This document shows, piece after piece, positions 26,938 to 47,503 of a DNA stretch of 64,000 bases. The translations under genes and the position numbers were made by a program. Positions within the stretch are counted from its first letter, which is position 1, and each line of letters begins with the position of its first letter. The notes beneath the pieces were generated by a model. The model was not told the origin of the DNA. It made no database searches and was given only the letters and a program-made list of their open reading frames with translations. Source of the DNA: a virus; the IMG/VR virus record IMGVR_UViG_3300025592_000986, one strand, 5' to 3'.

Positions 26938-27819
26938 TTATTCTTCATGATCCCTTGGATTTATTCCTGGCAGGCCATAAAACTGACCATTCTTGTATTC
27001 TAGCTCATCCGCGAGTACTGTTCTCTCTCGGGCGATTTTAATCTCAACAGCACTTTCTCTAATTACCATTTTGGGTTGGTCCTGGTTCTCGCCGGACCCG
27101 AATACATATCCTAGAACTTCAATTTGTATAGTTGTCTCAAATTTTCGTTCTTCGTTTGAAAAATTGGACAAGTTATTGTTAAACGAGTAGTCCTGTTGAA
27201 TAAAGCCTTCATACCTGTGATGCTCTCCATCTTTCAAGATAATGTAGTTTATTCCGCCTGGACTAGTGATGAACGATGTTATCAGTTCGTTCATCTGCTG
27301 TTGATACTCTGTCCTTATTACCACACTGTAGGTTATTGTAACATATACGGGAATAGGTATCGAGATAGTTTCGTAGACGACCTTGTTCTGCTTTAAGCTG
27401 GGAAAGTTTAATTGACCCCTCTTCCTCTTAGATTTAGTGTTCATAAAATTGGAAGTCTTATCTTGTTTTATTCTTCTCGCCACCTGTATACTGCCGCCTT
27501 TGGCGTCGTTCACTGGTAGGATATTCGCTTGAATTGTTCCTTTGTTCCCAGGATCCTTAACCACAGAAGTTCTATCGACTGTTATAAGCGGCATTATAAG
27601 TGCGCCAGATTTATCCCTGATTCCATCTTCTCTTTTGACTTGGTATGCCCTCTCCGCAGATGCCCAGATCACTGGGACTTTCTTGAAGCCTTCAGCCATC
27701 GTCACTGACAGGTTGAGTATGCCGTCGATATAATTCAACATAGCTTTGTCTATGTTCTCTAGTTTGGACTCTGCGAACGGCATTTCGGTTACCTTCCCAG
27801 GTATTTCTTTATGTGGCAT
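26938..27819 (-). CDS. tail completion / sheath stabiliser (gp15-like)
   Basis: KVPVIWASAER, PLIT, PVYVTITY...YQQQMNELI; follows the neck genes. Confidence 0.7.
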   Translation of the reverse strand: MPHKEIPGKVTEMPFAESKLENIDKAMLNYIDGILNLSVTMAEGFKKVPVIWASAERAYQVKREDGIRDKSGALIMPLITVDRTSVVKDPGNKGTIQANILPVNDAKGGSIQVARRIKQDKTSNFMNTKSKRKRGQLNFPSLKQNKVVYETISIPIPVYVTITYSVVIRTEYQQQMNELITSFITSPGGINYIILKDGEHHRYEGFIQQDYSFNNNLSNFSNEERKFETTIQIEVLGYVFGSGENQDQPKMVIRESAVEIKIARERTVLADELEYKNGQFYGLPGINPRDHEE

Positions 27820-28303: not shown

Positions 28304-29599
28304 TTACCCCACGAAGACCGTCAGTGGTATACTCTCTTGTATCTTCTTAGTAGATTCCATAAGAGCCGAATCAGATTCTGCAAGCTTAACATAAGTCATT
28401 TCTGCCAAGGTAGTTTTCAACTCTTCACGCAAAGCAGATTGCTCTTCTCTGGCCTCTGATATTAACGCACTGCCATTCAACGTCACCGATTCGCCAGGAA
28501 TAGGTATTGTAGCAAACTTGGACCTGATTTGTCCTAAAATCTCCTTACTGAGAGAGAGTGCAAATCTTCTGATCCACTGCTTACCTATAGCGTTGATACT
28601 TCTATAAGGCAAGTTGGCAAACGGGAGAGTATTCATATTGTTTATACCATCAATAGATTCATCGTCGCCGGCACCTATAAAAGGATCTGTTGGTATAGAA
28701 AATTTGAACCAAATTCTTGTTGGTCCACCACTGTAAGGTTTTGGAAATAACCTTAACTTGTTATTCTTAAGCTCAAAAGAAAAGTGAGACATCCTTGTAT
28801 AAATAGCGTCCTCAAACGCCATAGACTGCAGTTTGTTTTGCCAAGCAGGTATAATCTCAAAACTGGAGTTGTCGGAGAACTGCCCGTAATTGTGTAGATT
28901 TCCAACAACATTCAACCCGCCATAATACCCAAAAAATCTCCACATAGATTGGGGAGTCTTGTAAAAAACTTGGTTAACAATTATTTTTTTCTTACCTACT
29001 TTGCCAAAAAAGAGGCTGCCGCTTTGAGATATGGACGCTGATAAAACTGCTGCTTGCAGGTCGTAATCTTGCGTGCCCGTGTCCAGGTCCACTGAGGCTG
29101 AATATTCTACGCTGCCCCTTCCGACACCAACCTCCGCTCCCGCTGCCTCAGATGCTCTGCGAGCGTAACCAAAATCGAACTTTGGATATTTTAAAGAAAC
29201 ATGTTTGCCGTCCAGAGATGAAGATAACGTGGTATCTCCCGTCGATTTTAGCTGCCCGTTGTCGTCAAAAGATGCGGTTGAATGCCCCAGATAGCTAGCT
29301 AGCGTATTGTTGGCCTGGTGTATGTTTAGTATATAAGAATATTCTAGCACAGCCTCCTCGTAAGAAGCATAGACACTGGCGACGTTAAGCTCTATGTCTA
29401 AGACATCGCCGCCGAGTTTTCGATAAACATACGTTACTTGATTTGCAGCGCCAGATAAGAAAGTGGTGTCATACAAGCCAGAACTTGTATCAGAATAAAC
29501 TTTGTACGGAACAGACTTGTTAACATCACCCTCACTACCAGTTGCGGGCAAGATGCTCTTACTCGAATTGCTAGCAGGCGTAAGTGTTGGTATTGACAT
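28304..29599 (-). CDS. neck protein (gp13-like)
   Basis: YRKLGG.VLDIEL, WIRRFALSLSKEILGQIRSKF..IP.PG..VTLNG..L. Confidence 0.85.
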   Translation of the reverse strand: MSIPTLTPASNSSKSILPATGSEGDVNKSVPYKVYSDTSSGLYDTTFLSGAANQVTYVYRKLGGDVLDIELNVASVYASYEEAVLEYSYILNIHQANNTLASYLGHSTASFDDNGQLKSTGDTTLSSSLDGKHVSLKYPKFDFGYARRASEAAGAEVGVGRGSVEYSASVDLDTGTQDYDLQAAVLSASISQSGSLFFGKVGKKKIIVNQVFYKTPQSMWRFFGYYGGLNVVGNLHNYGQFSDNSSFEIIPAWQNKLQSMAFEDAIYTRMSHFSFELKNNKLRLFPKPYSGGPTRIWFKFSIPTDPFIGAGDDESIDGINNMNTLPFANLPYRSINAIGKQWIRRFALSLSKEILGQIRSKFATIPIPGESVTLNGSALISEAREEQSALREELKTTLAEMTYVKLAESDSALMESTKKIQESIPLTVFVG

Positions 29600-30393: not shown

Positions 30394-31515
30394 CTATTCG
30401 AAGAAGATTCTACTCATCTTCTGATAATAAACCACCATATCACGCTGTGTCGCGTCCTGGTTCATTATACCAACGTATGGAATAAAATCAATATCATCAG
30501 TCAATGCAAGACTTACTTGTGCCTCGTCACCTGACGCTGGGGACTGAGTGGTGCCACCAGCTACTGCTGTGTGAGTTAAGGCGTACTGAACGCCGTTGAC
30601 CCAAGCAGAGACCTTTCTATCAGAATCAATCTGAATTCCCAGTCTGTAATCAGTTGCTGCGGCGACAGTGATGCCGAGATCGGTCACATAATCAACGTTT
30701 GCGAGACTGTACACGAAATGCAAGTTAGCGTTTGTTGTCAACGCACCAGCATCATCATCCTCTGCGCCATAGATAAAATACGCTTGATTTGCGTCTGTAG
30801 CAAGGGTGGGTGTGTTAGTCAGCTTAAGACCTGCCCAGATTGTGGTGTCATCAATGTCAGCAGCGTCGGTGCGGATTGCGCACTCCCAATAAACTGAGTT
30901 TTCAGATCCCCATTTAGTTGATGCCCAAGCAGTCTGATTTGAGTCGAGGTGTGGCGTCAAGATCAATTGATCTCCGTTTGCCCCGTCAGGCTGTAAAACA
31001 ATCCCAGCAGTCGTAGCAGCAAATGTCAGGTCGTCGCTTGAAGCGTTTGTACCAAGAACCTCAAAGTTTCGGTTAGCGTGTGAGTTGCCGGCTGTGCCAG
31101 TATCTCTTTTAACAACCATTGCGGCCAAAGTGGTGCTAGCTAAGTCAATAGCACCGCCTGACTGGTTTTCTAAATTCACTGTTACAGTGTTTGTCGCGGT
31201 TACTTGAGCCGTGACTATCAAGTCTACAATGTCGACTCCAATTGACACTGTTGCAAAGTCGCCCATTGCCGCACCAGTGACAACTATGTCCTCACTAAGG
31301 TCAGCGCCGTCGGCGATTGAGCCAAAGTCTTTAGTTTCGCTACCAACCAAAAAGCCGTTGACCTTTGGTAGTTGTGTAAAATATTCTTCGTAACAAACAC
31401 GATCTGGATCTGTTATTGAAAACGGACTTCCATTAAGCCCACCTAGTCTTTTGTGGCCTAAAAGGTTATCAAGCGTTGCTTCTAGCCTTCTTGTGCCTAT
31501 TCTTCTATTACCCAT
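30394..31515 (-). CDS. probable head decoration / minor virion protein
   Basis: 373 aa, beta-rich and Ala/Thr/Asp-rich, directly downstream of the major capsid gene; AAGGAGG SD. Confidence 0.55.
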   Translation of the reverse strand: MGNRRIGTRRLEATLDNLLGHKRLGGLNGSPFSITDPDRVCYEEYFTQLPKVNGFLVGSETKDFGSIADGADLSEDIVVTGAAMGDFATVSIGVDIVDLIVTAQVTATNTVTVNLENQSGGAIDLASTTLAAMVVKRDTGTAGNSHANRNFEVLGTNASSDDLTFAATTAGIVLQPDGANGDQLILTPHLDSNQTAWASTKWGSENSVYWECAIRTDAADIDDTTIWAGLKLTNTPTLATDANQAYFIYGAEDDDAGALTTNANLHFVYSLANVDYVTDLGITVAAATDYRLGIQIDSDRKVSAWVNGVQYALTHTAVAGGTTQSPASGDEAQVSLALTDDIDFIPYVGIMNQDATQRDMVVYYQKMSRIFFE

Positions 31516-31552
31516 AATTTGTTTCCTCCTTATATGTTTTTATTATGGTTAC

Positions 31553-31645
31553 GTAACCTCAATTTTCACGACATCGTGCCCAGCCGCTTCGGGCACGAAT
31601 CTTCAAGGGACAGCGGCCCCGTCCCAGGAGAATTTTGAAAGTTAC
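31553..31645 (-). ncRNA. candidate structured RNA: three-way junction with two kissing hairpins
   Basis: Outer stem GTAACTT.../...AGGTTAC; hairpin 1 GGGAC-GGGGCCGCT-GTCCC; hairpin 2 TCGTGCCC-GAAGCGGCT-GGGCACGA; loops GCCGCU and AGCGGC are complementary. Confidence 0.7.
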
Positions 31646-31647
31646 AG

Positions 31648-31655
31648 TAAATAGC
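31648..31655 (-). promoter_or_regulatory. putative late promoter GCTATTTA directly 5' of the structured RNA
   Basis: One-mismatch copy between the gp23 terminator and the RNA element. Confidence 0.55.
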
Positions 31656-31661
31656 TTTCAG

Positions 31662-31697
31662 AAAAAAGAAAAGCCCCACCAAATTAATGATGGGGCT
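31662..31697 (-). terminator. rho-independent terminator after major capsid gene
   Basis: AGCCCCATCA-loop-TGGTGGGGCT followed by TTTCTTTTTT. Confidence 0.85.
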
Positions 31698-31730: not shown

Positions 31731-33440
31731 TTAGCTAGCGCCTTCCTCACCGAGGAGACCACGCACGATAACAAGACCATACATATCTGGTCTAACCATC
31801 TTCTTCGCGTAACGGGTCATTACACCCTTACGAGGTACAAAATCCTCTGTACCGAAAATGGTTGGTGTTACCTGCAACGGTACATATGGTGCGTATACGA
31901 AGCCACTCTCAAGGAATGAACTACCCTTACGACCAACAAGAACAACGTTGCGAGGAAAGTAAGGATCAACATAGATCTCGAACTTCTTGCTTAAAGCGCC
32001 GACCTTAACAGCACCGATGTCACCACGATCTGCATCAGCAGTTACGCTTGCACGGAAACCGCTTGTGAACTCAAGAATGTTAGCGACCTCTGGAGAGCAA
32101 ACAACAAAGTTTGCGCCGCCGCGAAGCGTCTTGCGGTGAATCTGAGCACTTACGTCATTGATCGTCTCAATGAGGGTCTCATACCACTCGCTAACAGTAC
32201 CAGTGAAGTCAGGTGCCGCTGAAGCTGCACCAAGCTCATTTCCGTTGCTATCAACGAAGAGACCTGGAGCGCGTGACCAGTAGCGAGTACCGGCCTTAGC
32301 ACCGACAATAAGATCACCAAGAATTTCCTGATCGATTTCAAGAGCAATTTGCTCAGAAAGAATGCCAGTTAATTCGACCTCGGCGTCAAGGTTGTGGTAA
32401 GCATTGAGGTCCTGGCCAAGCTCAGGAGTCCATTTTGCTTTCAACTTCTTGGTCGTTGCGGTAACAGCGATACTGTCAACGCGGATGTCGATTTCTGGAA
32501 TCGCTTCGCCGCCTTGTAGGATCTGCCCAGGCATTGAAGGATCTGAAACACCTGCACCTTCGAAAGGCATACCGGCGACATCTACTGCACCAACAGTATC
32601 AGCAGCACCGAGTGTGTCCTTCTTAGGGTAGGTAATGCTTACTGCATCGGTGTTGACACCTGCGTCAGTAGCGTGGGTGAAGACGACGTTAACTCCACCA
32701 TCAGTAGCGAAAGAAGTAAGTCTTCTAACCTGGGAAGCCTGATGAGAGTCAACAGAAGCACTTAATGCGAAAAGATTATTATCGTTAAGATCCGCTGGAA
32801 CGCTCCCTACTGGAATCTTAAGAACAGAAATAACATCAGATGCTGCAAGAACGTCCGGGTCGAATCGAATGCTTTTCTTTTGCGCCTCTGTCAACGAAGC
32901 AACAGCAACGTTTTCAAGAGCAGTATCAGCAGCAGCTACGTTAATAGCCGCAGATGAACCTGTAGCAGTCGTGTAACCTGTACCCAAGTTGTAAAAACCG
33001 CCGCCGTCGCCAGGATGAGATAAATTAACACCACCAGTCAACTGCGAAGCAATTACTCTACCACCATAGATAGATTCTTTTGTAACAGAAGCAGCCTTCG
33101 TGCTGTTGGTTTCAAAGTCCAAGAAGAAAATCAATCCACTTGGAAGACTCATAGGCTGAACGCTTACGAGATCGTTTGCAATCAATCCACCGAATACACG
33201 ACGAACGATTGGGAAAGCAACTGATGCGAAACCTTCGACATCACCTGCAGCCATTGATGAAGCTTCGCGAAGAAGCTCTTTAGCCTGATTCTCAAGGAGA
33301 ACGGCCATTGTATTTTGGGCTCTTTCACCAGTTAATCCTTCAAGAAGACCAGTCTTTTCCCACTTATTGAGAAGAGCAGTACCTTCCTTCTGGACATCGC
33401 GATGAACGATACCTTCAGTTAATGTTTGTAAAACAGACAT
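31731..33440 (-). CDS. gp23: major capsid protein (T4 gp23-like)
   Basis: AVLLENQ, VRRVF..LIANDLVSVQPM..PSGLIF, KLKAKWTPELGQDL.AYH.LDAEVEL, YAPYVPL, F.PRKGVMTRY. Confidence 0.97.
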   Translation of the reverse strand: MSVLQTLTEGIVHRDVQKEGTALLNKWEKTGLLEGLTGERAQNTMAVLLENQAKELLREASSMAAGDVEGFASVAFPIVRRVFGGLIANDLVSVQPMSLPSGLIFFLDFETNSTKAASVTKESIYGGRVIASQLTGGVNLSHPGDGGGFYNLGTGYTTATGSSAAINVAAADTALENVAVASLTEAQKKSIRFDPDVLAASDVISVLKIPVGSVPADLNDNNLFALSASVDSHQASQVRRLTSFATDGGVNVVFTHATDAGVNTDAVSITYPKKDTLGAADTVGAVDVAGMPFEGAGVSDPSMPGQILQGGEAIPEIDIRVDSIAVTATTKKLKAKWTPELGQDLNAYHNLDAEVELTGILSEQIALEIDQEILGDLIVGAKAGTRYWSRAPGLFVDSNGNELGAASAAPDFTGTVSEWYETLIETINDVSAQIHRKTLRGGANFVVCSPEVANILEFTSGFRASVTADADRGDIGAVKVGALSKKFEIYVDPYFPRNVVLVGRKGSSFLESGFVYAPYVPLQVTPTIFGTEDFVPRKGVMTRYAKKMVRPDMYGLVIVRGLLGEEGAS

Positions 33441-34799: not shown

Positions 34800-35246
34800 C
34801 TAAAAAGTTGATCCGGCGGCGAAGACATCTACATCGGCGTCCGTACCCACAAAGGCCACTCGGTCGATGCCGACAATATGATATAAACGATACTCTCTGT
34901 CATCGGGGGTTTGATCGGCAGGGGCGGCACCAGAATCTCCAACCACGATTGATGCTGCTGTCGCGGCGGAGTTGGCGGAAGCTAGATTAGTCTCAGGTAT
35001 CTCAAACCAGCGCTGAAAAGCGTGACAGTACCCAAACACTGTTACAGTCAAAGACGTCGACTCATTCGTGTCTGTGACTAAGACGTGTAAAAACCTTTGG
35101 TTCTCCGTAGCATAACCAGCAGTAGATGCGGTGACACCTTTTAGAGTGTTCGGATTTGCAAGAACTGCCACTGGTGTTCCGTTGGAACCTGCCAAATTTT
35201 TAGGGCCTCTCGTGCGACCCCAGCTTGTATTTTTATAAACTGACAT
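34800..35246 (-). CDS. hypothetical virion protein, tandem paralogue 2
   Basis: Start MSVYKNTSWGRTRGPKN after AGGAG. Confidence 0.75.
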   Translation of the reverse strand: MSVYKNTSWGRTRGPKNLAGSNGTPVAVLANPNTLKGVTASTAGYATENQRFLHVLVTDTNESTSLTVTVFGYCHAFQRWFEIPETNLASANSAATAASIVVGDSGAAPADQTPDDREYRLYHIVGIDRVAFVGTDADVDVFAAGSTF

Positions 35247-35257
35247 TATATAGTCTC

Positions 35258-35716
35258 CTAAAAAGTTGAACAAGCAGCAAAGATGTTAACCCTTGCTGCG
35301 TTTGCGTTGACGAATGCCACCCTGTCAATTCCAGCTATTTCATATATCCTCTGTTCTCTTGCCGAGGGGACGTGGTTCGCTGGAGTTGTTGAAGAGTTCG
35401 GCGGGTCTATCGATGCTGCTGTGGCGGCGGTGTTAGCCGAAGCTAGATTGGTCTCGGGTATCTCGAACCATCTTTGGAAAGCGTGACAGTATCCAAAGAT
35501 AGTTGTTGCTGTAGCATTCGTGTCGCCGCCGTCGTTTGTTTCTTCTATCAAGACGTGAAGATATCTTTGGTTTTCTGTTGCATACCCCGCAGTGGAGGCT
35601 ACGATGCCAACAAGAGTTGAAGTGTCCGCCAGAGCCGTGATTTCACCACCCTGCGAGCCCGCAACATTCTTTGGGCCCCTTGTTCGACCCCAGCTTGTGT
35701 TTTTATAAACTGACAT
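35258..35716 (-). CDS. hypothetical virion protein, tandem paralogue 1
   Basis: Same N-terminus plus shared AGYATENQR, FGYCHAFQRWFEIPETNLASAN and GIDRVAFV. Confidence 0.75.
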   Translation of the reverse strand: MSVYKNTSWGRTRGPKNVAGSQGGEITALADTSTLVGIVASTAGYATENQRYLHVLIEETNDGGDTNATATTIFGYCHAFQRWFEIPETNLASANTAATAASIDPPNSSTTPANHVPSAREQRIYEIAGIDRVAFVNANAARVNIFAACSTF

Positions 35717-35984: not shown

Positions 35985-36395
35985 TTAAATTAAGTTTTTC
36001 CAGCGTGCGCCGCCGATTTTCAATATTCCATCTATGTTTATGCCTGGATCTTCAGGTGCTACGTCCGCCAAGGGGTTTGCTCCAGGTTGTGATTTGCTGG
36101 AAGACCTTAGCGGCTTCACGTCCTCAAAAATGTTTACACCGTTGTAACCATCAGAACCGATAGCCTTTGCCATTCGGTCTTTCGTCTCTTTTAGCTGTTG
36201 CCTCTTTTTCGTTTCCGCGAGGTGCTGGCTGACAGGCTCTTGCTTCAGGGATATGGATTCATCTATTCTAGAAGCCCCAAGACCTTGAACCACTTCAGAA
36301 ACAATGTTGGATAGCATCCCCTCTTCTAGGATAACCTCCTTTATACACTGTTTTATCAAGGGCTTCAATATCGTCTTCAGTTCGCTACTTTTCAT
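35985..36395 (-). CDS. hypothetical head-region protein
   Basis: MKSSELKTILKPLIKQCIKEVILEEG N-terminus; coupled to the protease gene. Confidence 0.7.
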   Translation of the reverse strand: MKSSELKTILKPLIKQCIKEVILEEGMLSNIVSEVVQGLGASRIDESISLKQEPVSQHLAETKKRQQLKETKDRMAKAIGSDGYNGVNIFEDVKPLRSSSKSQPGANPLADVAPEDPGINIDGILKIGGARWKNLI

Positions 36396-36988
36396 AGTTT
36401 CGTCCTTAGTATATTTTCGATTAGATTGTTTATCTTAACTTTCTCGTTGTTGACCTCTAACTCCTTGCCCTCTTTCACCATGTAGGCACCAGGGGTTGAT
36501 GGGTCAGCGACCATATCAAAGCAGATTAATTGAAAGTCGTCTTCCACCATAGTGACCCCGTTACTCTCAGTAACAGAGCCCATACCCCTAGAGGATATGC
36601 CGCAAGGAACACGAGCGTGTATGAGACTTTCCAAGATCTTTCCGGCCGGGGTTTGCAGCACTTCAATCTTGCCCATACACTTATTGCCTTCCATCCAAAT
36701 GTCTGTCACCAGGTGCGAGCAGTTTTGCAAATTAACAACTCCAGACTCGGGATGATCAAGTTCCCCTAAAGCTCGGCGGCCCTTAACGGACTCCTTGTAC
36801 CTCTCGACTTCTCTTTCTAGAATCGCGTGGGGATAGACTCTACCGTTACCGTTTTGCCTTTCTGACATTTGCATAACGCCCGAAAGTATAGTAGCTCCGT
36901 TTGCAACTCTCTCTTTCTCAGCTTCCGTGAGATAGTCTTGGCAGACGCCGCCTTCGCAAAGTTCGTAATATTCTCTTAATAACTTCAT
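36392..36988 (-). CDS. gp21: prohead core protease (T4 gp21-like)
   Basis: NGNGRVYP, ALGELDHP, SHLV, TPAGKIL, GISSRGMGS, FDMVADPSTPGAY; likely start MKLLRE after GGAG. Confidence 0.95.
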   Translation of the reverse strand: MKLLREYYELCEGGVCQDYLTEAEKERVANGATILSGVMQMSERQNGNGRVYPHAILEREVERYKESVKGRRALGELDHPESGVVNLQNCSHLVTDIWMEGNKCMGKIEVLQTPAGKILESLIHARVPCGISSRGMGSVTESNGVTMVEDDFQLICFDMVADPSTPGAYMVKEGKELEVNNEKVKINNLIENILRTKL

Positions 36989-37024
36989 CAATCGTTCTCC
37001 AGTAGCGGGGGCGACCCGCATCAT

Positions 37025-38021: not shown

Positions 38022-38826
38022 TCTCTTTCTTAAGTTGCTGAACCTTTAAGACCTTTTCAACCATACCGTTAGTAACTTCTTCGTTGGCCATTGCCTCAAG
38101 AGACGAGACGACTTCCGATACTCTATTCTTTAAGTCCTCGTTTTCTATTTTAGTTCCGACTTCTCTCAGACTAGACTTCAAATCTCCAACCTCTTCATTC
38201 AAAAACATCTTTAGCTCAAGGCCGCCGTCGGCAAATGATGTAACGAATTTTGTCATAAGGCTTTTCTGAGATTCGGTTAACTCCTCGTGATACTTTTCGT
38301 TAAAGTTCTTGACGAAAGACCTGTATATCAGATTATTTATTGGGTGTTTTGGTTGGTGTGATTCTGCCTGTTGTCCCTTTATTGCAGACTTTATTAAACT
38401 CTGTTCCAAGAGGACCTTACTCTTGATGGAGGTCGAACTATTGAAAATTGAGTAAATTGTTGCAAGGTTTTTGTAATTCGGCACGAAGTTATCGTAAACG
38501 TTTACTCCAAGTTGCTTGTTTATCTTCTCAATCATTTCAGATTGTTCTTTAAAGATAGCGTCCTGATCAAGCTTTGAGTGTTGGATCTTTGCTTCCATAA
38601 CAACCTTTTCGATTGTATCACTGGCAAGTTCTTCCAAACCAGTTAGACTATGGTAAGTGTCTAGTTCTTTTTTTAGATTTTTATTCCTTGAGAAGCTCTC
38701 TTTGATTATCTTGGTTATTTTAGTCTTCCTGCCTGTATCTTTCTTGATGATGCTCTTTGTCAACTCTCTGACCAGGACTTCATATATGAAAGCGGTATTT
38801 CTTTTTTTGTTATGCTTTATCTTCAT
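38002..38826 (-). CDS. hypothetical helical protein downstream of portal
   Basis: 274 aa, MKIKHNKKRNTAFIYE N-terminus. Confidence 0.75.
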   Translation of the reverse strand: MKIKHNKKRNTAFIYEVLVRELTKSIIKKDTGRKTKITKIIKESFSRNKNLKKELDTYHSLTGLEELASDTIEKVVMEAKIQHSKLDQDAIFKEQSEMIEKINKQLGVNVYDNFVPNYKNLATIYSIFNSSTSIKSKVLLEQSLIKSAIKGQQAESHQPKHPINNLIYRSFVKNFNEKYHEELTESQKSLMTKFVTSFADGGLELKMFLNEEVGDLKSSLREVGTKIENEDLKNRVSEVVSSLEAMANEEVTNGMVEKVLKVQQLKKEIESYVS

Positions 38827-40771
38827 TTTTGCCCCTCAACTCCAAATTCTCAATTAACTGCTTTAGCTCCTGTCCAACTTGGCCAATAATTGCTTCCTCG
38901 TTATTATAAGTAGTATCTTTGCGTTCATAAAGACTCTTCAATTCGTGGTAGCCCTTGTGTGTGTTTCTTCTAGAGGATGAAGCGATTGAGGCTCCTCCTT
39001 GAGCTAGTTGAGATCTGCGATGGGCACCTTGCGGGCGGCTATCGTTTTTTACGGGAGTGTATTCTTTCCTCCTCTTAGCCGGCGAGCGGCCCCTATTGTC
39101 CACACTATCGTCTCTCTTGCCAGGGGCTGCCAGTAAGCTACTCTCAGGATCATCAGAATCTGCAGCTACATCATCCAAGCCGGGTTCTTCCTGTCCGACC
39201 GTACCGGTTCCGCCTTCTGGCGCACCGGCATCATCAAGGTCAAGAGGATCTTCACCACCAGATGTTGGATCGTCAAAAGAACCTGCGCCAGTGATCTCAG
39301 CCTGAACTTGTTCGGCCACTGCTTCGAGGGTAGCCTCGAATTTTCTGTCATAGAACATCTCTCTCTGATTTCTGAGAAACTCTTCTTCTGACATATTGAA
39401 CATCTTGGTGGCAACCCACCTCTTACTAAAGTATCCCTCGGTTGCATTTGAGGCTGCGTCGAACTTGACCTTCCAATGTTCGAGTTCTTGTAACTCTGCT
39501 ATCTTAGATGGGTTTGACAAAGATATTTTGAAAGACGTGAGGTCAGCGCCCCTAAATCCAAGTATATAAAGGTGCACCAGCCCGACCTTTTCCAACTCCG
39601 TCACTACCGAGCGTTGCATTCTCTGGACAGTTCTAGCAAATCTTATATCTTTTTGAGCTAGCGTCGCCTTATCTTCTTCTGCGCCTTCAGTTGCGGAAAG
39701 GTATGATGGTGGTATTTTCAGTGCTGAAAAAAGCTTGTCGCGGAGATATTTAACATCGTCTATGTCTCCAGTATAGGTTCCACCCGGCAGTGTTTCTATT
39801 TTTGTGCTAACTCCGCCACGTACTGGTACAAAATAATCCTCATCTATAGACATCGGATTGTATCTTAAGTCAACCCTTCCTGTGTTCGGGTCAACAACTT
39901 GATGCCTCTTCATTTGTGTCATAACTTTTTGCATATATTGTTCAACATCTTGTGGTGCGATACCTCCAGTGTCGATGTAGAACACCCTTCTCTCTGGAGA
40001 TCTTACAATTCTATACGCCATCATAGCATCCTCAAGGAGAGTTAATTGACGCCAAATTCGTCGGGCAGGTTCGAGGGCGCTCGTCCCGTATGGTGCGTGT
40101 TTGTCGTTGCCCAGGATTCTAAAGTGAGCAATTTGCCAATTTTCGAAAGTCATTCCGGCACTATTCCATTGGTACTGAATATAGTTAGGATTTGATTTAT
40201 CCTCCCCTTCAAGACGTTCTATCTCTTGACCGGGTAAACCTATGCAACTTTTTATACCAAGGGTTTCATCGATGTCCATATATAAAAAGAAGTCTCCATA
40301 CTTGCACATCGTTCTTGACCAACCAAAGAGATTAAACTCGATGTTCATTATATTGTGATATAGAGAGTCAAGTATGTTTTTGATTTCGTCATTAGGACAA
40401 TCTATCGTAAGCAAAGGCTGCAAGTTAGAACTTGTGGTCATCTCATCTGCATAGATGTCAAGAGCAGAAGCGATCTCAGGTGTGTACTCCATCTGATCGA
40501 AGTCTACATATCTTTCAAGCCGGTTTTGATTGGCCATGACGCCAGCCATAAGATTGTCGAATGGATTATATTGGGTCTTTTTGAACTGCTGACCGCTCGC
40601 TGATTTGAATCTCTGTGCGTATTTGTCTAATTGTCGGCGTCGCAACCTTCTAGCTGTCTGGGTGCGGTGAACTACTAGTGGCCCAGAAAGCAACCTAGTC
40701 AAACTTTTAAATAAGCTGTTTTCTGGATTTCTGGTGTTGTTTGTGTTTATATTCTTTTTGTTAGAAGCCAT
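38810..40771 (-). CDS. gp20: portal protein (T4 gp20-like)
   Basis: PEIASALDIYADE, WRQLTLLEDAMMAYRIVRSPERRVFYID.G, EDYFVPVRG, IETLPGG, DVKYL..KLF.ALKIP. Confidence 0.95.
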   Translation of the reverse strand: MASNKKNINTNNTRNPENSLFKSLTRLLSGPLVVHRTQTARRLRRRQLDKYAQRFKSASGQQFKKTQYNPFDNLMAGVMANQNRLERYVDFDQMEYTPEIASALDIYADEMTTSSNLQPLLTIDCPNDEIKNILDSLYHNIMNIEFNLFGWSRTMCKYGDFFLYMDIDETLGIKSCIGLPGQEIERLEGEDKSNPNYIQYQWNSAGMTFENWQIAHFRILGNDKHAPYGTSALEPARRIWRQLTLLEDAMMAYRIVRSPERRVFYIDTGGIAPQDVEQYMQKVMTQMKRHQVVDPNTGRVDLRYNPMSIDEDYFVPVRGGVSTKIETLPGGTYTGDIDDVKYLRDKLFSALKIPPSYLSATEGAEEDKATLAQKDIRFARTVQRMQRSVVTELEKVGLVHLYILGFRGADLTSFKISLSNPSKIAELQELEHWKVKFDAASNATEGYFSKRWVATKMFNMSEEEFLRNQREMFYDRKFEATLEAVAEQVQAEITGAGSFDDPTSGGEDPLDLDDAGAPEGGTGTVGQEEPGLDDVAADSDDPESSLLAAPGKRDDSVDNRGRSPAKRRKEYTPVKNDSRPQGAHRRSQLAQGGASIASSSRRNTHKGYHELKSLYERKDTTYNNEEAIIGQVGQELKQLIENLELRGKNEDKA

Positions 40772-40776
40772 CAGTT

Positions 40777-42363
40777 TTATCCCTTAAATAACCACGGAAA
40801 GTTTTCGTGATTGCTTTTTGTTTTTACTATACCATCAAATACACTATCTTTTTTGTAAGAATTCATACCTGGTATACTTGTATTCAAATTCGTCTTGGTA
40901 CTAAACATAGCCCCCATTGCCGCCTTTTTGTATTCTATAGCCTTGTAGTTTTCAGAGAGTGTTGTATCTCGGACCCAACAACCAATCGAACAAGCTAATA
41001 TTAAGTCGTCATTGTAAGATCTCATAGCAGTAGGTTTACCGTTGTGCCATACGAACGTTTTCATCTCGCTTAAAAGTCTCGACGAATATATCTTAATTAG
41101 CTTGTTTCTCACGAATTCTTCAAATTTAGCTATTATTAGTGGCCTAGTCTTTGATGATGTCGTAAAGCCAGCTATTGTGTTACTTCTATACTCAGCCTCG
41201 ATGGGGTCGATGTAGTCGTGACTAGACTTTACAGAAAAATAAACATTTGGATACCCTCTATCTACCAACTTTTCAAGCACAGAATATCCAACAGAGTTAT
41301 TTTCGACCACCAACATACAATTTCCGTACTCGACACCAGCGTTGAAAAGCAGTTCAGAGAATATGTCGGGGGTAACTTTTCCTTGGTATTCTGCAATTAT
41401 CTCCATACTGTCAAGTTTTATTATGTGAAACACGGAGTAGTCTCGCCCGTCGCCTCTAGCGACGTCTGCAGAGATTAAGTATTGCACACCTTGCTGATAT
41501 TCTTGCCAAATCCAAAAGTTTCTATCGAATCCAGTCCTGTATTTGGGTTCAGTGATCAATTCCGCAATCCACTCTAGATCTTCTGGGTGGAAAACGGTTT
41601 CACCAGACATATTGAAACTGCACTCAAGCTCTTGCGCGATCTCTCTTCTAGACATATTTTTTGTCTCTCTGTCAAACCAATCTTTGTCTCGGTCTGGGTG
41701 GACCTCCCAGGGCAACACAGTTGGAAAGAAATCGTTAACCGAAGATTCAGATTCTGAGTATATTTTATGAAACCAATTACCGACGCCGTTTGGAGTGGAA
41801 AGCGCGATGCATCGCCCACCAGTAGACAGTGTAGGATACAGCCCCATCCACAACTCATCCAGTCCGTCGATGTGAGCAGCTTCGTCTATAACTAACAAAG
41901 ACAAGGCCTCTGAACGCCCTGCGTCGCCGGAGGTAGAAGAAGCTTTTATTTGAGAGCCGTTTGATAATTCGAAGGAAGTCCTGTTGTCTATAGTCACATG
42001 TGCGATGGTCAACCAGTCGGGAACGTTTCTTAGTATGTTTTTGACCTTCTTAACCAGGTTTGCGGCGGTGCCGAACTTTGTAGCAATAACCAGAACGTTC
42101 TTTTCTTTATGAAACAACATTTGCCATACAACAAAGCCTGCAGTAATCGTAGAGATACCTAGCTGCCTAGCCTTCAATATAACATTGAAACGGTGATCTA
42201 TAAAATTCTCTACTAAGTCTTCCTGAAATGGGTATAACTTGAATGGAATCAGCCCACGCTGCGGGTGAGTGATCTTGGCGTAGTTATTGATAAAGTAGTT
42301 TGGATTCTTGCCACACTTTATTATTTCTTTGCGGATATCTTGCTTGGTGAGTTTAAAAGACAT
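40777..42363 (-). CDS. gp17: terminase large subunit (T4 gp17-like)
   Basis: LKARQLGIST (Walker A), LLVIDEAA (Walker B), STPNG, ADVARGDG.DYS, NDDL. Confidence 0.95.
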   Translation of the reverse strand: MSFKLTKQDIRKEIIKCGKNPNYFINNYAKITHPQRGLIPFKLYPFQEDLVENFIDHRFNVILKARQLGISTITAGFVVWQMLFHKEKNVLVIATKFGTAANLVKKVKNILRNVPDWLTIAHVTIDNRTSFELSNGSQIKASSTSGDAGRSEALSLLVIDEAAHIDGLDELWMGLYPTLSTGGRCIALSTPNGVGNWFHKIYSESESSVNDFFPTVLPWEVHPDRDKDWFDRETKNMSRREIAQELECSFNMSGETVFHPEDLEWIAELITEPKYRTGFDRNFWIWQEYQQGVQYLISADVARGDGRDYSVFHIIKLDSMEIIAEYQGKVTPDIFSELLFNAGVEYGNCMLVVENNSVGYSVLEKLVDRGYPNVYFSVKSSHDYIDPIEAEYRSNTIAGFTTSSKTRPLIIAKFEEFVRNKLIKIYSSRLLSEMKTFVWHNGKPTAMRSYNDDLILACSIGCWVRDTTLSENYKAIEYKKAAMGAMFSTKTNLNTSIPGMNSYKKDSVFDGIVKTKSNHENFPWLFKG

Positions 42364-44362: not shown

Positions 44363-47300
44363 CTAAACGTTTACGTGAGCGTAACTTCCGAGCTTGTCAA
44401 TGTTAATTTGAGTATCTACAGAGTCCTTGAGCGCATCTAAATGCGATATCAAAATGACAGTCTTAAAATAAGTCTTGGCCATATCGATAATTCTAACAAA
44501 ACCTTCCATATTGTCCTCATCCAAAGCCGTGCCCGGTTCGTCCATAATAAATAGGTCCGGTTTTGGTAAATTCGTAACTGCTAGTAACGCAAGCCTAATT
44601 GCCATAGAGGCTATTGTCTTCTCGGCACCGGAGCCCATCTCTAATGGCCTTGGGTCATACTTCGGGTGCTTGATAAATATGTTCAAATCCTTGTCGTCAT
44701 CCAATATAAACGTCTCAAAGTCAACAATACCCGTCAGTATTTTTGCGATCTCTTCGTTAATTACCGGGAGTCTGTTTTTAATAATGTCGTAAGATATGCC
44801 ATTAGAATGACAACATTTTATATACAATTCAAAAGCGGAATATTCTTCCCTCAGAGATTGTAGTTCCAGCTTTTTGGCCTGCAGTGTCTTGACCACCTGT
44901 TCATTAGAACCTATCTCCCTAAATAGATCGTTCGTATCTGATTTGCAAGCGTCCCATTCCCTCTTGACTTTTGGTGACTCTGTCTGTAGGGCCTGCCTTT
45001 CAAGTAACAGTTCTTCTAGGCTCTCCATCGCGTCCTTGTTGCCTTCATATTCTGCCATCCTGGAATTCAACGGCTTTAAGTCTGCCTCTTCTTTGTAGAT
45101 TAAACCTTCGTTTCTTTCCTTGTTTAATTTCAAACTGGCCAGAGACGAAGCTAATCTGTTCTTTTTCTCTACAAGTTGATTGTATTTCTCCAAATATTCT
45201 CCAACCTTGTCTGGCTGCAATTCAGATATTTCGTTTCCGACTTCATTTGCCTTTTTGGAAACGACAGACATCTTGGATTCAACGACCTTCACCAGGTCTA
45301 AAGAACCGTAAGCGTCTTTAATAAATTTACAATTAGGAAACTTGTCACCACAAGGAACCTCTGACAACAAGTCTTGTTTCTTGTAAAGTCTCGTCCTCTG
45401 TTCCGAATAGCTTTTGATTTCCGACAGCAAGAGGTCCAGGTCTTTCGACTTTGTATTTATCAGGTTCAGTTTTTCTTGGTACGAACCTACATCAAACTGC
45501 TCTACAAACTTTTCCATTTTCTCTAAAGTCACGGAGTCTGAGCTTATCTGTTCAGTATACGACTCGTTTTCAACTTTGGCAGTGGATATCGTATTCTCTT
45601 TAGCACGTATCTGCTTTTTCAGTCTAACTGGGTCTATCAGTTCCGACGGGGCCGAATCTACCTTTGCCTTGATGCCCTCCATCTTTATTGCCAACTGTTG
45701 GGCTTGTTCCTCCAGGGACGAACACTTACTCTGGCTCTCCACTAGGCGTTTGTTGCTGAGTTCAAGAGCTTCATTCGCTTCCTCAAGTTGCCCCTCGAAA
45801 TCTATCTCTTCGAGCTTTTTCAAAAGAGCTTTCGCTTCCGCTGAATCTTTTTTAGCCATCTTAAACTTTTTATCAAAAATTTCTAAATCTAAAAACTTTG
45901 CCAGAATCTTCTTCCGCTCTGTGACGCCTTGATTGATAAAGGTTAGAGAATCCATTTGGCTGGTCATAGAAGTCATCAAAAAGTCTTCTAACGTCCCGAA
46001 ATACCTTCTGATCTCTTTGTCCGTACCTCCTCTGGCCAAGGCGTTGAGTTCTTCGACCTGCCCCATTGCGTCGACACAAACAAAGTCAGCACTCGTCTTT
46101 GCCTCGATTGTTTCCACACCTTTTAATTTTTTGAGATACTTTTCCGACTTTCGTTCTATCGTATAAGTCCTATCTCCAATCTCGATAACAGTCCTGCCAA
46201 ACGCATTGACCTCGTTCTGGTTGATGAAATTCAGATTCTTCCTGACGGACTTTGACGTGCTGTTGTACATCGTATAAAGCAGGCTATCTATGATCGAAGA
46301 TTTGCCTGAAAAGTTCTTACCAAAAATACCGACGATACCCGACAACTTGTCAAAATTTACCTTGTTGCCTTTTCCGTAGTTAAACAGATTGTCCCACTCG
46401 ACACTCTTGAGGGACCAGTTTATATTTCTGTAAACCTCTTCTTCCTCCTCGATAGACGTGTTGTACTTTGAGTTCAGGAGCAGGATCCTGTTCATAACCT
46501 CGTCAGTTATTTCGTAATCATTCAAGTACTCCCTGATTAGGCGTTGTTGTACTTCGATGTCTCTTAGATCTTCTTTAGTGGAAACCGAACTAACATCCAC
46601 CTCAGAACCTTTTGAGCTTGCCCTGTTCATATACGTCAAGGTGTCTGGCTTGTACTTGTGTTTTACAAGATCAAGGGCCCTTCTCATTCTGGCCAAGGGA
46701 ATGTTGTTTTCCGATACGACCCTGAGACGTGCCCCAGGAGGAGCGTTTATGTTGTTCGGAAGCTCGCCCTTGGAGTTTAAGAAGATGGTAACAAAGGGTT
46801 TGGGATTCTTGAACGTGTGCAACTTACAGGTAAATTTATCTTTACTTGTGATATCCCAAAGCAAGTAGCCTTTGTCTAGAGACTCTCCAAAATTCTGCTG
46901 AACTGTCGAGCCGGCATATCTTACCTTGCCTTTATGATCCAGAATTTGAGTCTTGTGTATGTCTCCTAAAAAGGCAAAGTCAAACCTGTCGAAGATACTG
47001 ATGTCGTGGTCGCCGGTCAATGTCCAGTTCAAATCAGTTTTCGATCTGTCGATTGCACCGTGGTACAGGGCAATGTTGACAAGCTGTTTGTTGGAGGGCT
47101 CACTCCAGTTCTCCTCATCGAACACAGACAAGACGTTTAAAGCGAACTTGTCCTCCAGCACTACCTCTTGGGCCCGTTTAAGTATAAACAGATTAGGGTT
47201 TTGCAAAGCTTCAGCGATGGGCGTTATCGCATCTTGACGACTTGCATTTTTCAGGTTACCGTCGTGATTTCCCAGGATCACGTACGTTGGGGCGATGTTG

Positions 47301-47503
47301 GCAAGCCTGGATAGAAACTTGGAACACATCTCGACGAACTCTGGTGATATTTGAGTCTTCGTGTGTGCGATGTCCCCACAATGGACTATGTAATCGACAT
47401 CTTGCTCCTCTAGAGATTTGTATAATTGATCAAAAACTTCATTATATTCATGATGATACTTCAAATTTCGGATATGAGTATCCGCTATGTGGGCAAAACG
47501 CAT
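44363..47503 (-). CDS. fused SbcD-SbcC (Mre11-Rad50; T4 gp47+gp46-like) nuclease-ATPase
   Basis: ADTH, GDIAH, GNHD, GDIH metallophosphoesterase motifs, then GKNFSGKSS Walker A, coiled coil, GSGAE signature, IMDEP Walker B, ISH. Confidence 0.93.
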   Translation of the reverse strand: MRFAHIADTHIRNLKYHHEYNEVFDQLYKSLEEQDVDYIVHCGDIAHTKTQISPEFVEMCSKFLSRLANIAPTYVILGNHDGNLKNASRQDAITPIAEALQNPNLFILKRAQEVVLEDKFALNVLSVFDEENWSEPSNKQLVNIALYHGAIDRSKTDLNWTLTGDHDISIFDRFDFAFLGDIHKTQILDHKGKVRYAGSTVQQNFGESLDKGYLLWDITSKDKFTCKLHTFKNPKPFVTIFLNSKGELPNNINAPPGARLRVVSENNIPLARMRRALDLVKHKYKPDTLTYMNRASSKGSEVDVSSVSTKEDLRDIEVQQRLIREYLNDYEITDEVMNRILLLNSKYNTSIEEEEEVYRNINWSLKSVEWDNLFNYGKGNKVNFDKLSGIVGIFGKNFSGKSSIIDSLLYTMYNSTSKSVRKNLNFINQNEVNAFGRTVIEIGDRTYTIERKSEKYLKKLKGVETIEAKTSADFVCVDAMGQVEELNALARGGTDKEIRRYFGTLEDFLMTSMTSQMDSLTFINQGVTERKKILAKFLDLEIFDKKFKMAKKDSAEAKALLKKLEEIDFEGQLEEANEALELSNKRLVESQSKCSSLEEQAQQLAIKMEGIKAKVDSAPSELIDPVRLKKQIRAKENTISTAKVENESYTEQISSDSVTLEKMEKFVEQFDVGSYQEKLNLINTKSKDLDLLLSEIKSYSEQRTRLYKKQDLLSEVPCGDKFPNCKFIKDAYGSLDLVKVVESKMSVVSKKANEVGNEISELQPDKVGEYLEKYNQLVEKKNRLASSLASLKLNKERNEGLIYKEEADLKPLNSRMAEYEGNKDAMESLEELLLERQALQTESPKVKREWDACKSDTNDLFREIGSNEQVVKTLQAKKLELQSLREEYSAFELYIKCCHSNGISYDIIKNRLPVINEEIAKILTGIVDFETFILDDDKDLNIFIKHPKYDPRPLEMGSGAEKTIASMAIRLALLAVTNLPKPDLFIMDEPGTALDEDNMEGFVRIIDMAKTYFKTVILISHLDALKDSVDTQINIDKLGSYAHVNV

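Follow-up and report, generated by a model that had tools for sequence, protein, structure and literature searches.

The locus

The DNA analyzed in this study is a 64,000-nucleotide (nt) stretch of viral sequence (IMG/VR record IMGVR_UViG_3300025592_000986), which in its full length is referred to below as the window. Between its major capsid protein gene and the gene that follows lies a 93-nt RNA element (31553-31645, minus strand), in which a basal stem and two hairpins with complementary loops form a three-way junction and of which 71 distinct homologues were found in marine phage contigs. The element is embedded in a T4-type head and neck module that comprises the large terminase (40777-42363), the portal (38810-40771), the prohead protease (36392-37024), the gp23-family capsid protein, gp15 (26938-27819), and a gp13-like neck protein (28304-29599), the last of which has a weak PHROG match and corresponds to a syntenic gene in relatives that is Pfam Phage_T4_gp13. 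The features of the locus are listed here; MFE denotes the minimum free energy and aa, amino acids.

31731-33440 (-): gp23-family major capsid protein gene (PF07068, E = 1.7e-74)
31662-31697 (-): intrinsic terminator of the gp23 transcript, a stem-loop at 31697-31672 (10-bp GC-rich stem, 6-nt loop) followed by a T-tail
31655-31648 (-): promoter-like motif GCTATTTA, with the core CTATTTA at 31648-31654; the family consensus is ACTATTTA
31553-31645 (-): three-way-junction RNA, 93 nt, with the basal stem P1/P1b and hairpins S1 and S2, whose loops pair
31635-31645 (-): 5' strand of P1, GUAACUU.CAA, partner of 31553-31562
31626-31632 (-): UUCUCCU tract, in which UUC is the 5' strand of P1b and CUCCU lies at 31630-31626
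31607-31625 (-): hairpin S1, GGGAC/GUCCC, with the 9-nt loop L1 GGGGCCGCU at 31612-31620
31599-31606 (-): junction strand J2 UUGAAGAU, the supposed hammerhead-like core of an initial annotation of this DNA
31574-31598 (-): hairpin S2, UCGUGCCC/GGGCACGA, with the 9-nt loop L2 GAAGCGGCU at 31582-31590
31582-31588 with 31612-31618 (-): kissing-loop helix between the L2 tract AGCGGCU and the L1 tract GGCCGCU, six Watson-Crick pairs and one G.U
31553-31567 (-): 3' strands of P1b (GAA) and P1 (UUG AGGUUAC), from the MFE fold and covariation
31547-31558 (-): perfect palindrome GGTTACGTAACC, overlapping the 3' strand of P1
31525-31531 (-): Shine-Dalgarno (SD) sequence AAGGAGG, of which AGGAG is present in 71/71 homologues
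31512-31518 (-): AUUAUGG, including the start codon, a possible partner of CCAUAAU at 31542-31548 in a helix, P4, whose loop would hold the SD
30394-31515 (-): downstream gene, 373 aa, with the basic N-terminus MGNRRIGTRRLE

The RNA element starts 2 nt past the promoter-like motif in the window, and 37 nt, including AAGGAGG, separate its end from the ATG at 31515. The resulting leader is 132 nt long, compared with the short, unstructured leaders of 15 to 40 nt that precede other late genes in the window. The terminator after the capsid gene has the same position in all relatives. A terminator 3' of the RNA element was looked for and none was found; the element is therefore read as the leader of an mRNA and not as a separate small RNA.

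Covariation supports the stems and the kissing-loop helix

The initial annotation, made from the letters of the window, had described two GC-rich hairpins with complementary 9-nt loops (GCCGCU/AGCGGC plus a G.U pair). This description agrees exactly with the sequence, and the fold goes far beyond chance: the MFE of the window element is -36.6 kcal/mol (z = -3.3), a stability equaled by 1 of 200 shuffles. In the covariation alignment (A3, 71 sequences), standard pairs occupy 95.1% of the pair cells, compared with 82% in shuffles, and the covariation score of 0.403 (0.165 in shuffles) was reached by none of 500 shuffles. When the 3' partners were slid by 1 to 3 columns, pairing fell to 31 to 47%. 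Unguided RNAalifold recovered P1, S1, and S2; its alternative inside loop 1 consists of only two pairs, which do not covary, and that alternative by itself thus leaves the covarying loop column unexplained.

Hairpin S1 is 100% paired and has double changes at three of four pairs, and S2 has them at six of eight. In P1, A-U, G-C, and G.U pairs are exchanged among the homologues, with many G.U pairs (26 and 14 U.G, for example). Since these many G.U pairs are on the sense strand, the structure lies in the sense-strand RNA, and together with the single copy per genome piece they rule out a DNA-level cruciform or repeat element. The reading of the element as a conserved, structured RNA of the sense strand is thereby upheld. 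The ends of the element do close an outer stem, GUAACUU.CAA/UUGAGGUUAC, as had been noted, but this stem is longer than described: in an anchored comparison, P1 continues as P1b (UUC/GAA in the window, UCC/GGA in locus L008, and CUGGUC/GACCAG in the subtype C defined below), so that the basal stem extends over 13 to 16 bp and only short strands are left for the junction: UCCU plus 0 to 2 nt in J1, 6 to 10 nt in J2, and 5 to 7 nt in J3.

The loop-loop helix, for which a covariation check had been proposed, is paired in all 71 sequences. Five of its positions are invariant (G.U, G-C, C-G, C-G, and C-G), and compensatory switching is found at one position, which is A-U in 42 sequences, C-G in 23, G-C in 6, and unpaired in none; a fourth variant, U-A, was not present at this position among the loci fetched. 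The seventh kissing pair is U-A in 49 sequences and U.G in 22. Both loop sequences are almost invariant, beyond what pairing needs. Intramolecular and intermolecular loop pairing cannot be told apart by these data, since the covariation would be the same for both.

An RNA family of uncultured marine T4-like phages

Homologues were collected from the loci of capsid protein relatives in IMG/VR and by two pattern scans of viral contigs, and the distinct homologues (n = 71), all from IMG/VR marine phage contigs, were defined with covariance model R1; each source carries one copy. When the window was scored with the same model, exactly one copy was found, at 104.7 bits. The element lies less than 400 nt downstream of the end of a gp23 gene in 67 of 70 loci, and the remaining 3 are cut by the contig end. 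From the capsid relatives, 80 loci were fetched at 59 to 71% identity; some carry the element at the same place, and it is absent from the other 66. In a quick capsid protein tree, the carriers are scattered among noncarrier sisters with high branch support, which argues that the leader and its gene form a cassette that is exchanged independently of the capsid gene.

Searches elsewhere were negative. A nucleotide search of isolated phage genomes gave no match, and the capsid protein is less than 50% identical to that of any isolate. A metagenome pattern scan gave, among the matches listed, only chance matches, none of which was upheld by a hidden Markov model. An exact-pattern scan for the commonest loop variant only, in one genome per prokaryote species (bacteria and archaea), gave four matches, none of which was confirmed by the covariance model. 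The search of Rfam 15 that had been suggested as a test of novelty gave no hits at the gathering threshold over the whole window, no match over the element at an E value of ≤10, and, for three homologous loci at an E value of ≤1, only an unrelated weak T-box match elsewhere. Literature searches turned up no account of the motif, although it may be among the 8,495 unnamed candidate RNAs from IMG/VR reported by Fremin et al. in 2023 (PMC10690425). The element is a real, evolutionarily conserved folded RNA of uncultured marine T4-like phages and lies outside the catalogued RNA families, as the initial annotation had anticipated.

Three subtypes were distinguished.

Subtype A (window): kissing pair G-C or A-U; J2 UUGAAGA; J3 UUCGUGA; palindrome present
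Subtype B: kissing pair A-U; J2 UAGAAAG; J3 AUCAUUGA; palindrome present
Subtype C: kissing pair C-G; J2 ACUGUCU; J3 AAACU; longer P1b and larger loop 2; palindrome absent

All three subtypes share the promoter-like motif, the basal stem, the CUCCU of J1, both loop sequences, and the SD AGGAG; AUUAUG at the start is kept in most members. In the window itself, J3 reads UGUCGU ahead of the P1b strand GAA. A catalytic core or a ligand pocket at the junction is unlikely, given that neither J2 nor J3 is conserved.

Perfect even-length palindromes were found in 46 of the 48 subtype A and B homologues. They overlap or directly follow the 3' strand of P1 (GGTTACGTAACC in the window; GTTATTGCAATAAC, GTTATCGATAAC, and GGTTAACGTTAACC in homologues), and their cores differ (TTGCAA, TCGA, ACGT, and AACGTT). 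Since the symmetry survives changes of the core, a symmetric duplex or DNA site fits these palindromes better than a hairpin does. An RNA hairpin has no need of a self-complementary loop, and the palindromes may therefore reflect the pairing of two RNAs in a dimer duplex, a symmetric DNA-binding site, or template-switch repair.

The junction carries an invariant complement of the SD

The junction sequence CUCCU is invariant in 71/71 homologues and is the exact complement of the SD core AGGAG, which is likewise found in 71/71. Approximately 90 nt, including S1, S2, and the palindrome, separate the two tracts. When the transcripts of the 71 homologues were folded from P1 to 18 nt beyond the AUG, the MFE structure had a closed junction and a free SD in 59 and anti-SD:SD pairing in 12; in a longer context of the window, the MFE structure pairs the CUCCU tract with the SD. 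When each of the two folds was enforced, their energies in subtypes A and B were nearly equal, with mean differences of -0.1 and 0.5 kcal/mol, and direct-path barriers between them are approximately 15 kcal/mol in subtypes A and B and approximately 22 kcal/mol in subtype C. The predicted inhibitory fold is a cloverleaf of S1, S2, and a palindromic hairpin that reuses the 3' strand of P1. Thermodynamic prediction on prefixes of the window leader gave the closed fold as the MFE at 90 to 110 nt, the covered fold at 120 to 130 nt, and the closed fold plus a start-codon helix for the full leader.

This start-codon helix, P4 (CCAUAAU/AUUAUGG), is a weak prediction. Its mean best helix is 6.6 bp, compared with 5.4 bp in shuffles, and reaches 8 to 9 bp in subtype C, and there is one compensatory case, in locus L041 (CCAUUU/AAAUGG).

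A strand-specific promoter-like motif precedes the element

The initial annotation had proposed that the element has its own late promoter. The motif is present, enriched, and strand specific: there are eight copies of ACTATTTA in the window, compared with 2.3 expected, all on the gene (minus) strand, with their first bases at 167, 16663, 19887, 26486, 29633, 34579, 42979, and 47781. Copies lie 15 to 40 nt upstream of many gene starts, and near-variants lie upstream of further genes. Positions 1 to 3 and 5 to 7 of the motif (C, T, A, T, T, and A) are invariant in the 71 homologues, and in all of them P1 begins 4 to 7 nt after it. By analogy, ACTATTTA is presumed to be the late promoter of this lineage. 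The T4 late promoter is 8 bp long; the candidate consensus of this uncultured T4-like lineage differs from that of T4, TATAAATA.

The leader is joined to several protein bodies

Pfam assigned no family to the 373-aa product, and its metagenomic homologues, at least 1,539 in number, include none that is functionally named. An AlphaFold2 model (predicted local distance difference test score, 74) has a low-confidence basic N-terminus with a helix, followed by an immunoglobulin-like sandwich and a concanavalin A-like jelly roll, and the best Foldseek matches were PL7 alginate lyases, legume lectins, and neurotoxin Hc-N lectin-like domains. In an unrelated phage, this protein body is encoded directly behind an HK97-type capsid gene, with another N-terminus and without the element. 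The lectin-like jelly-roll fold of the model and the position of the gene directly after the capsid gene, even in an unrelated phage, make it plausible that the product is a capsid-surface or decoration protein.

The element-bearing loci encode at least three unrelated protein bodies (approximately 190, 270, and 373 aa) with the common start M-G-[NS]-R-R-[LI]-G-x-[KR]-R-[LIV] (31480-31515, minus strand, in the window). From these sequences, the promoter, the leader, and the first dozen codons appear to behave as one portable module.

Other leaders at the locus

One natural variant (L375:2425-2503, plus strand) keeps the promoter motif, the basal stem, the palindrome, and the SD, and has a UUCAU loop in place of both hairpins and UCCU. 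Its downstream protein is 69% identical, with the N-terminus changed to MGALGTRRFERL. Relatives without the element have other structured leaders after the same promoter motif, and their post-capsid gene is always preceded by some 5' hairpin.

Two of these other leaders recur. Directly after the promoter motif, loci L001, L004, L009, L022, L029, and others carry a simple AAGGC-loop-GCCUU hairpin, the 3' arm of which is complementary to the SD AAGGAG; the proteins are MAKLGRYSADRKK, starting M[AS]K[LV]GRYSADRKK, and in L016 the promoter motif and hairpin occur twice in tandem. A second family of structured leaders, conserved and 61 to 168 nt long, is found in L003, L019, L028, L033, L036, L039, L043, L074, L079, and others. 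It contains GACAUGAUUAUAAAUGG ... GGAGGG/GGAGGGUUUUUAAC(U)AUG, its start codon can pair with an upstream CAU, and it always accompanies proteins of the type MG[TS]KR[VIL]GLAR..ENLKRE (e.g., MGTKRVGLAR). The sequence AAGUUAUUGC is common to some leaders of this second family and to the kissing-loop family.

Other features of the window

Three further observations concern genes elsewhere in the window. At 20372-20728 and 23920-24276 there are 90-nt tandem repeats, three copies each, that are 64 to 93% identical, and further long direct repeats connect 20279-22715 with 23827-24955; they lie inside adjacent open reading frames (ORFs) of 1,134 and 709 aa, which therefore look like paralogous repeat-bearing (fiber-like?) proteins. 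A 1,046-aa ORF at 44363-47503 (minus strand) combines a calcineurin-like phosphoesterase (Mre11/SbcD-like, residues 1 to 218) with an SMC/AAA region (Rad50/SbcC-like) in an apparent fusion; in T4 the two parts are encoded apart, as gp47 and gp46. Two adjacent paralogous ORFs of 157 and 152 aa (34800-35273 and 35258-35716, minus strand), located between the protease and scaffold-like genes, share stretches of 71 to 96 nt, approximately 460 nt apart, that are 83 to 85% identical in DNA; neither has a family match.

DISCUSSION

In this study, we have shown that a three-way-junction RNA with a kissing-loop head is conserved downstream of the major capsid gene of uncultured marine T4-like phages. 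Its position between the gp23 terminator and the next gene, its single copy per locus, and the lack of a terminator after it argue for a leader. Among the roles that had been suggested for it, a cis-acting regulator of the next, head-associated gene is the best reading, and we postulate that the element serves as 5' leader to a late phage mRNA and sets the translation of a capsid-surface protein by means of competing folds; we put the probability of this reading at about 0.5. Transcription would start a few bases after CTATTTA, so that the RNA would open with the 13- to 16-bp basal stem P1/P1b. As the covariation shows, this stem ends in the three-way junction, where the 9-nt loops, locked by the GC-rich kissing helix of 6 to 7 bp, give a compact, T-shaped fold. 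This closed fold would engage part of the anti-SD in P1b and the junction and leave the ribosome site free. In the alternative fold the basal stem would open, CUCCU would pair with the SD across approximately 90 nt, and the cloverleaf would be closed, with the ribosome site covered. The prefix folding suggests that the closed fold would form first during transcription. The leader would thus set the amount and the duration of translation of the capsid-surface protein, and protection of the message at its 5' end is likely as an added or an alternative role.

The retention of the basal stem, the palindrome, and the SD in the L375 variant counts in favor of a leader function. Several observations weigh against regulation by competing folds. 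Both partners of the CUCCU:SD pairing are invariant, which puts this pairing beyond testing by covariation, and a U/C difference beside CUCCU tracks the SD poorly, with two C variants opposite A. In subtype C, the closed fold is ahead by 5.8 kcal/mol, and the covered state may rarely be formed there. The L375 deletion indicates that the kissing head is dispensable for the expression of a 69%-identical protein and that the basal stem is the retained core. For the protection of a 5' end, a simple hairpin would suffice, which leaves the elaborate, invariant loops unaccounted for. Finally, the start of transcription at P1 is an assumption of the scheme.

Some of the same observations would suit a purely structural 5' cap, in which the stem and the kissing head shield the message from 5'-end-dependent decay (through RNase E/RppH or RNase J) and prevent structure at the ribosome site, with no switching, and in which the complementarity of CUCCU is incidental or serves tertiary contacts. 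The basal stem stands right after the promoter-like motif in all homologues, the closed fold with a free SD is the MFE structure in 59/71, the refolding barrier is high, relatives without the element bear other stable hairpins at the same place, and the L375 variant keeps only the basal stem. We nevertheless consider this explanation doubtful, because it leaves unexplained the invariance of CUCCU and of the loops across subtypes with differing junction strands, and because a simple hairpin is enough in the relatives. It is less probable still that the leader is a protein-binding operator, on which a phage protein represses translation by binding the kissing head or the start-codon hairpin; the candidate would be the Arg-rich N-terminus of the product itself (MGNRRLGRKRL) in its unassembled state. 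The loops, and not the junction, are the most conserved part, the leader and the N-terminal motif are shared by at least three unrelated protein bodies, the N-terminus is basic by sequence and has a helix in a low-confidence model, and the L375 deletion comes with the altered N-terminus MGALGTRRFERL. Joint inheritance is to be expected in any case, however, since the leader adjoins the first codons; comparably basic N-termini (MGTKRVGLARVEAL) are found behind another leader, inspection by eye showed no link of the peptide variants to the kissing base pair, and the binding is purely hypothetical. Were such an operator to exist, free decoration protein would shut off its own translation and binding to the capsid would lift the repression; promoter, leader, and first dozen codons, passed as a module between unrelated capsid-surface proteins, would then be a portable device that limits production to what the capsids can take up.

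The remaining explanations are far less probable. Loops or palindromes, or both, could pair between molecules in a trans-acting or oligomerizing RNA that forms dimers or rings: covariation is blind to intramolecular versus intermolecular loop pairing, L1 contains GGCC, and the palindromes with different cores in 46/48 subtype A and B homologues are better explained by a symmetric duplex or a DNA site. We judge this very unlikely, because no discrete small RNA would arise where no terminator follows the element, a T4-type terminase and portal are present, the palindrome is absent from subtype C, and rough geometry suggests that intramolecular pairing is feasible with a J2 of 6 to 10 nt. T4-type packaging is not known to need a prohead RNA (pRNA). 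A small-molecule or ion riboswitch with its aptamer at the three-way junction or the loop-loop interface is just as improbable. The three-way junction, pairing loops, and anti-SD do recall translational purine riboswitches, and kissing loops are known from lysine and cobalamin riboswitches; however, J2 and J3 vary in sequence and length among the subtypes, a GC-rich loop helix of 6 to 7 bp should form without ligand, the gene is structural and late rather than metabolic, no Rfam model matches, and a close relative has deleted the head. The initial annotation had also seen an echo of the hammerhead core in UUGAAGA (J2) and GAAA (J3) of the window, which, with the three helices and a loop-loop contact as in type III hammerheads, would suggest a self-cleaving ribozyme, either a hammerhead variant or a new class. 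This echo did not hold up, and a ribozyme is hardly credible: relatives have UAGAAAG or ACUGUCU in place of the first motif and UCAUUGA or AAACU in place of the second, C3 is absent, J1 and J3 (at least 4 to 6 nt) do not fit the core, and no ribozyme model matched at an E value of ≤10 (window element) or ≤1 (relatives). The element is probably neither a ribozyme nor a metabolite sensor.

Regulation of translation by competing leader folds is reminiscent of the maturation gene leader of the RNA phage MS2, in which an upstream complement pairs with the SD, closes a cloverleaf, and blocks ribosome entry, and in which a metastable alternative fold that forms first delays this pairing and allows a burst of translation (PMC4615214, citing Groeneveld 1995, Poot 1997, and van Meerten 2001). 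As in the MS2/Levivirus leader, an SD-complementary sequence lies 5' of several hairpins and its pairing would close a cloverleaf, a competing fold that ties up the upstream sequence is predicted to form first, and the presumed target is a virion protein of low or fixed stoichiometry. Unlike MS2, the phages described here are DNA phages whose late mRNA is transcribed, and with no sequence homology between the leaders, the comparison concerns only how they work. In place of a short metastable hairpin, the permissive fold here has a long basal stem that roughly matches the inhibitory fold in stability; a kissing helix locks two of the hairpins, and the long-distance pairing, which is invariant and so without covariation, is proposed from the sequence and predicted folds.

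Other RNAs share parts of the architecture. Like the translational purine riboswitch (RF00167), the element has a closing stem and two loop-interacting hairpins in a 5' leader upstream of the SD, features that are shared but do not define membership. Its loop helix is a continuous run of 6 to 7 Watson-Crick pairs, whereas the riboswitch has two pairs plus quadruples; there is no link to a purine gene and no ligand is indicated. Membership was rejected because the nucleotides of the junction pocket are not conserved and the model does not match. Type III hammerheads have three helices, an open end at the basal stem, and a contact between two hairpin loops, as found here, but the CUGANGA and GAAA core and the cleavage site geometry are absent and not conserved. 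That class was also rejected on the junction strands: UUGAAGA of the window lacks C3, and with a J3 of 5 to 7 nt and a J1 of UCCU plus 0 to 2 nt, there is neither the GAAA joint between stems II and III nor the single H17. Approximately six GC-rich loop-loop pairs, within one molecule or formed by a 9-nt loop, are also generally known from the kissing loops of lysine and cobalamin riboswitches and of the HIV-1 dimerization initiation site type; a further common feature is two unpaired 5' purines before the pairing tract, GA in both loops here. These RNAs are unrelated to the element, neither loop of which is in an expression platform hairpin that holds the ribosome site. The pRNA of phi29 is likewise a phage RNA with two complementary loops; its loops pair between molecules to form a ring on a phi29-like portal, whereas the element forms the leader of an mRNA in a phage whose terminase and portal are of the T4 type. 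A discrete RNA of the phi29 kind (approximately 120 to 174 nt) was rejected on the grounds that there is no Rfam match, no terminator after the element, and a T4-type motor.

Few structured regulatory RNAs have been described for the late genes of DNA phages, and none in Rfam fits this capsid accessory leader. The motif is spread widely among abundant uncultured marine T4-like phages, with unusually clean evidence for its kissing loop. Should the anti-SD reading prove true, a DNA phage would dose a virion surface protein with an MS2-like folding device, and the leader would represent a compact natural part in which a locked T-shaped fold is combined with a built-in competitor for the ribosome site. 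The cassette pattern also marks the hypervariable post-capsid locus: one combination of promoter, leader, and N-terminal peptide precedes various protein bodies and is scattered over the capsid tree, which makes this locus a place to study the modular exchange of decoration proteins.

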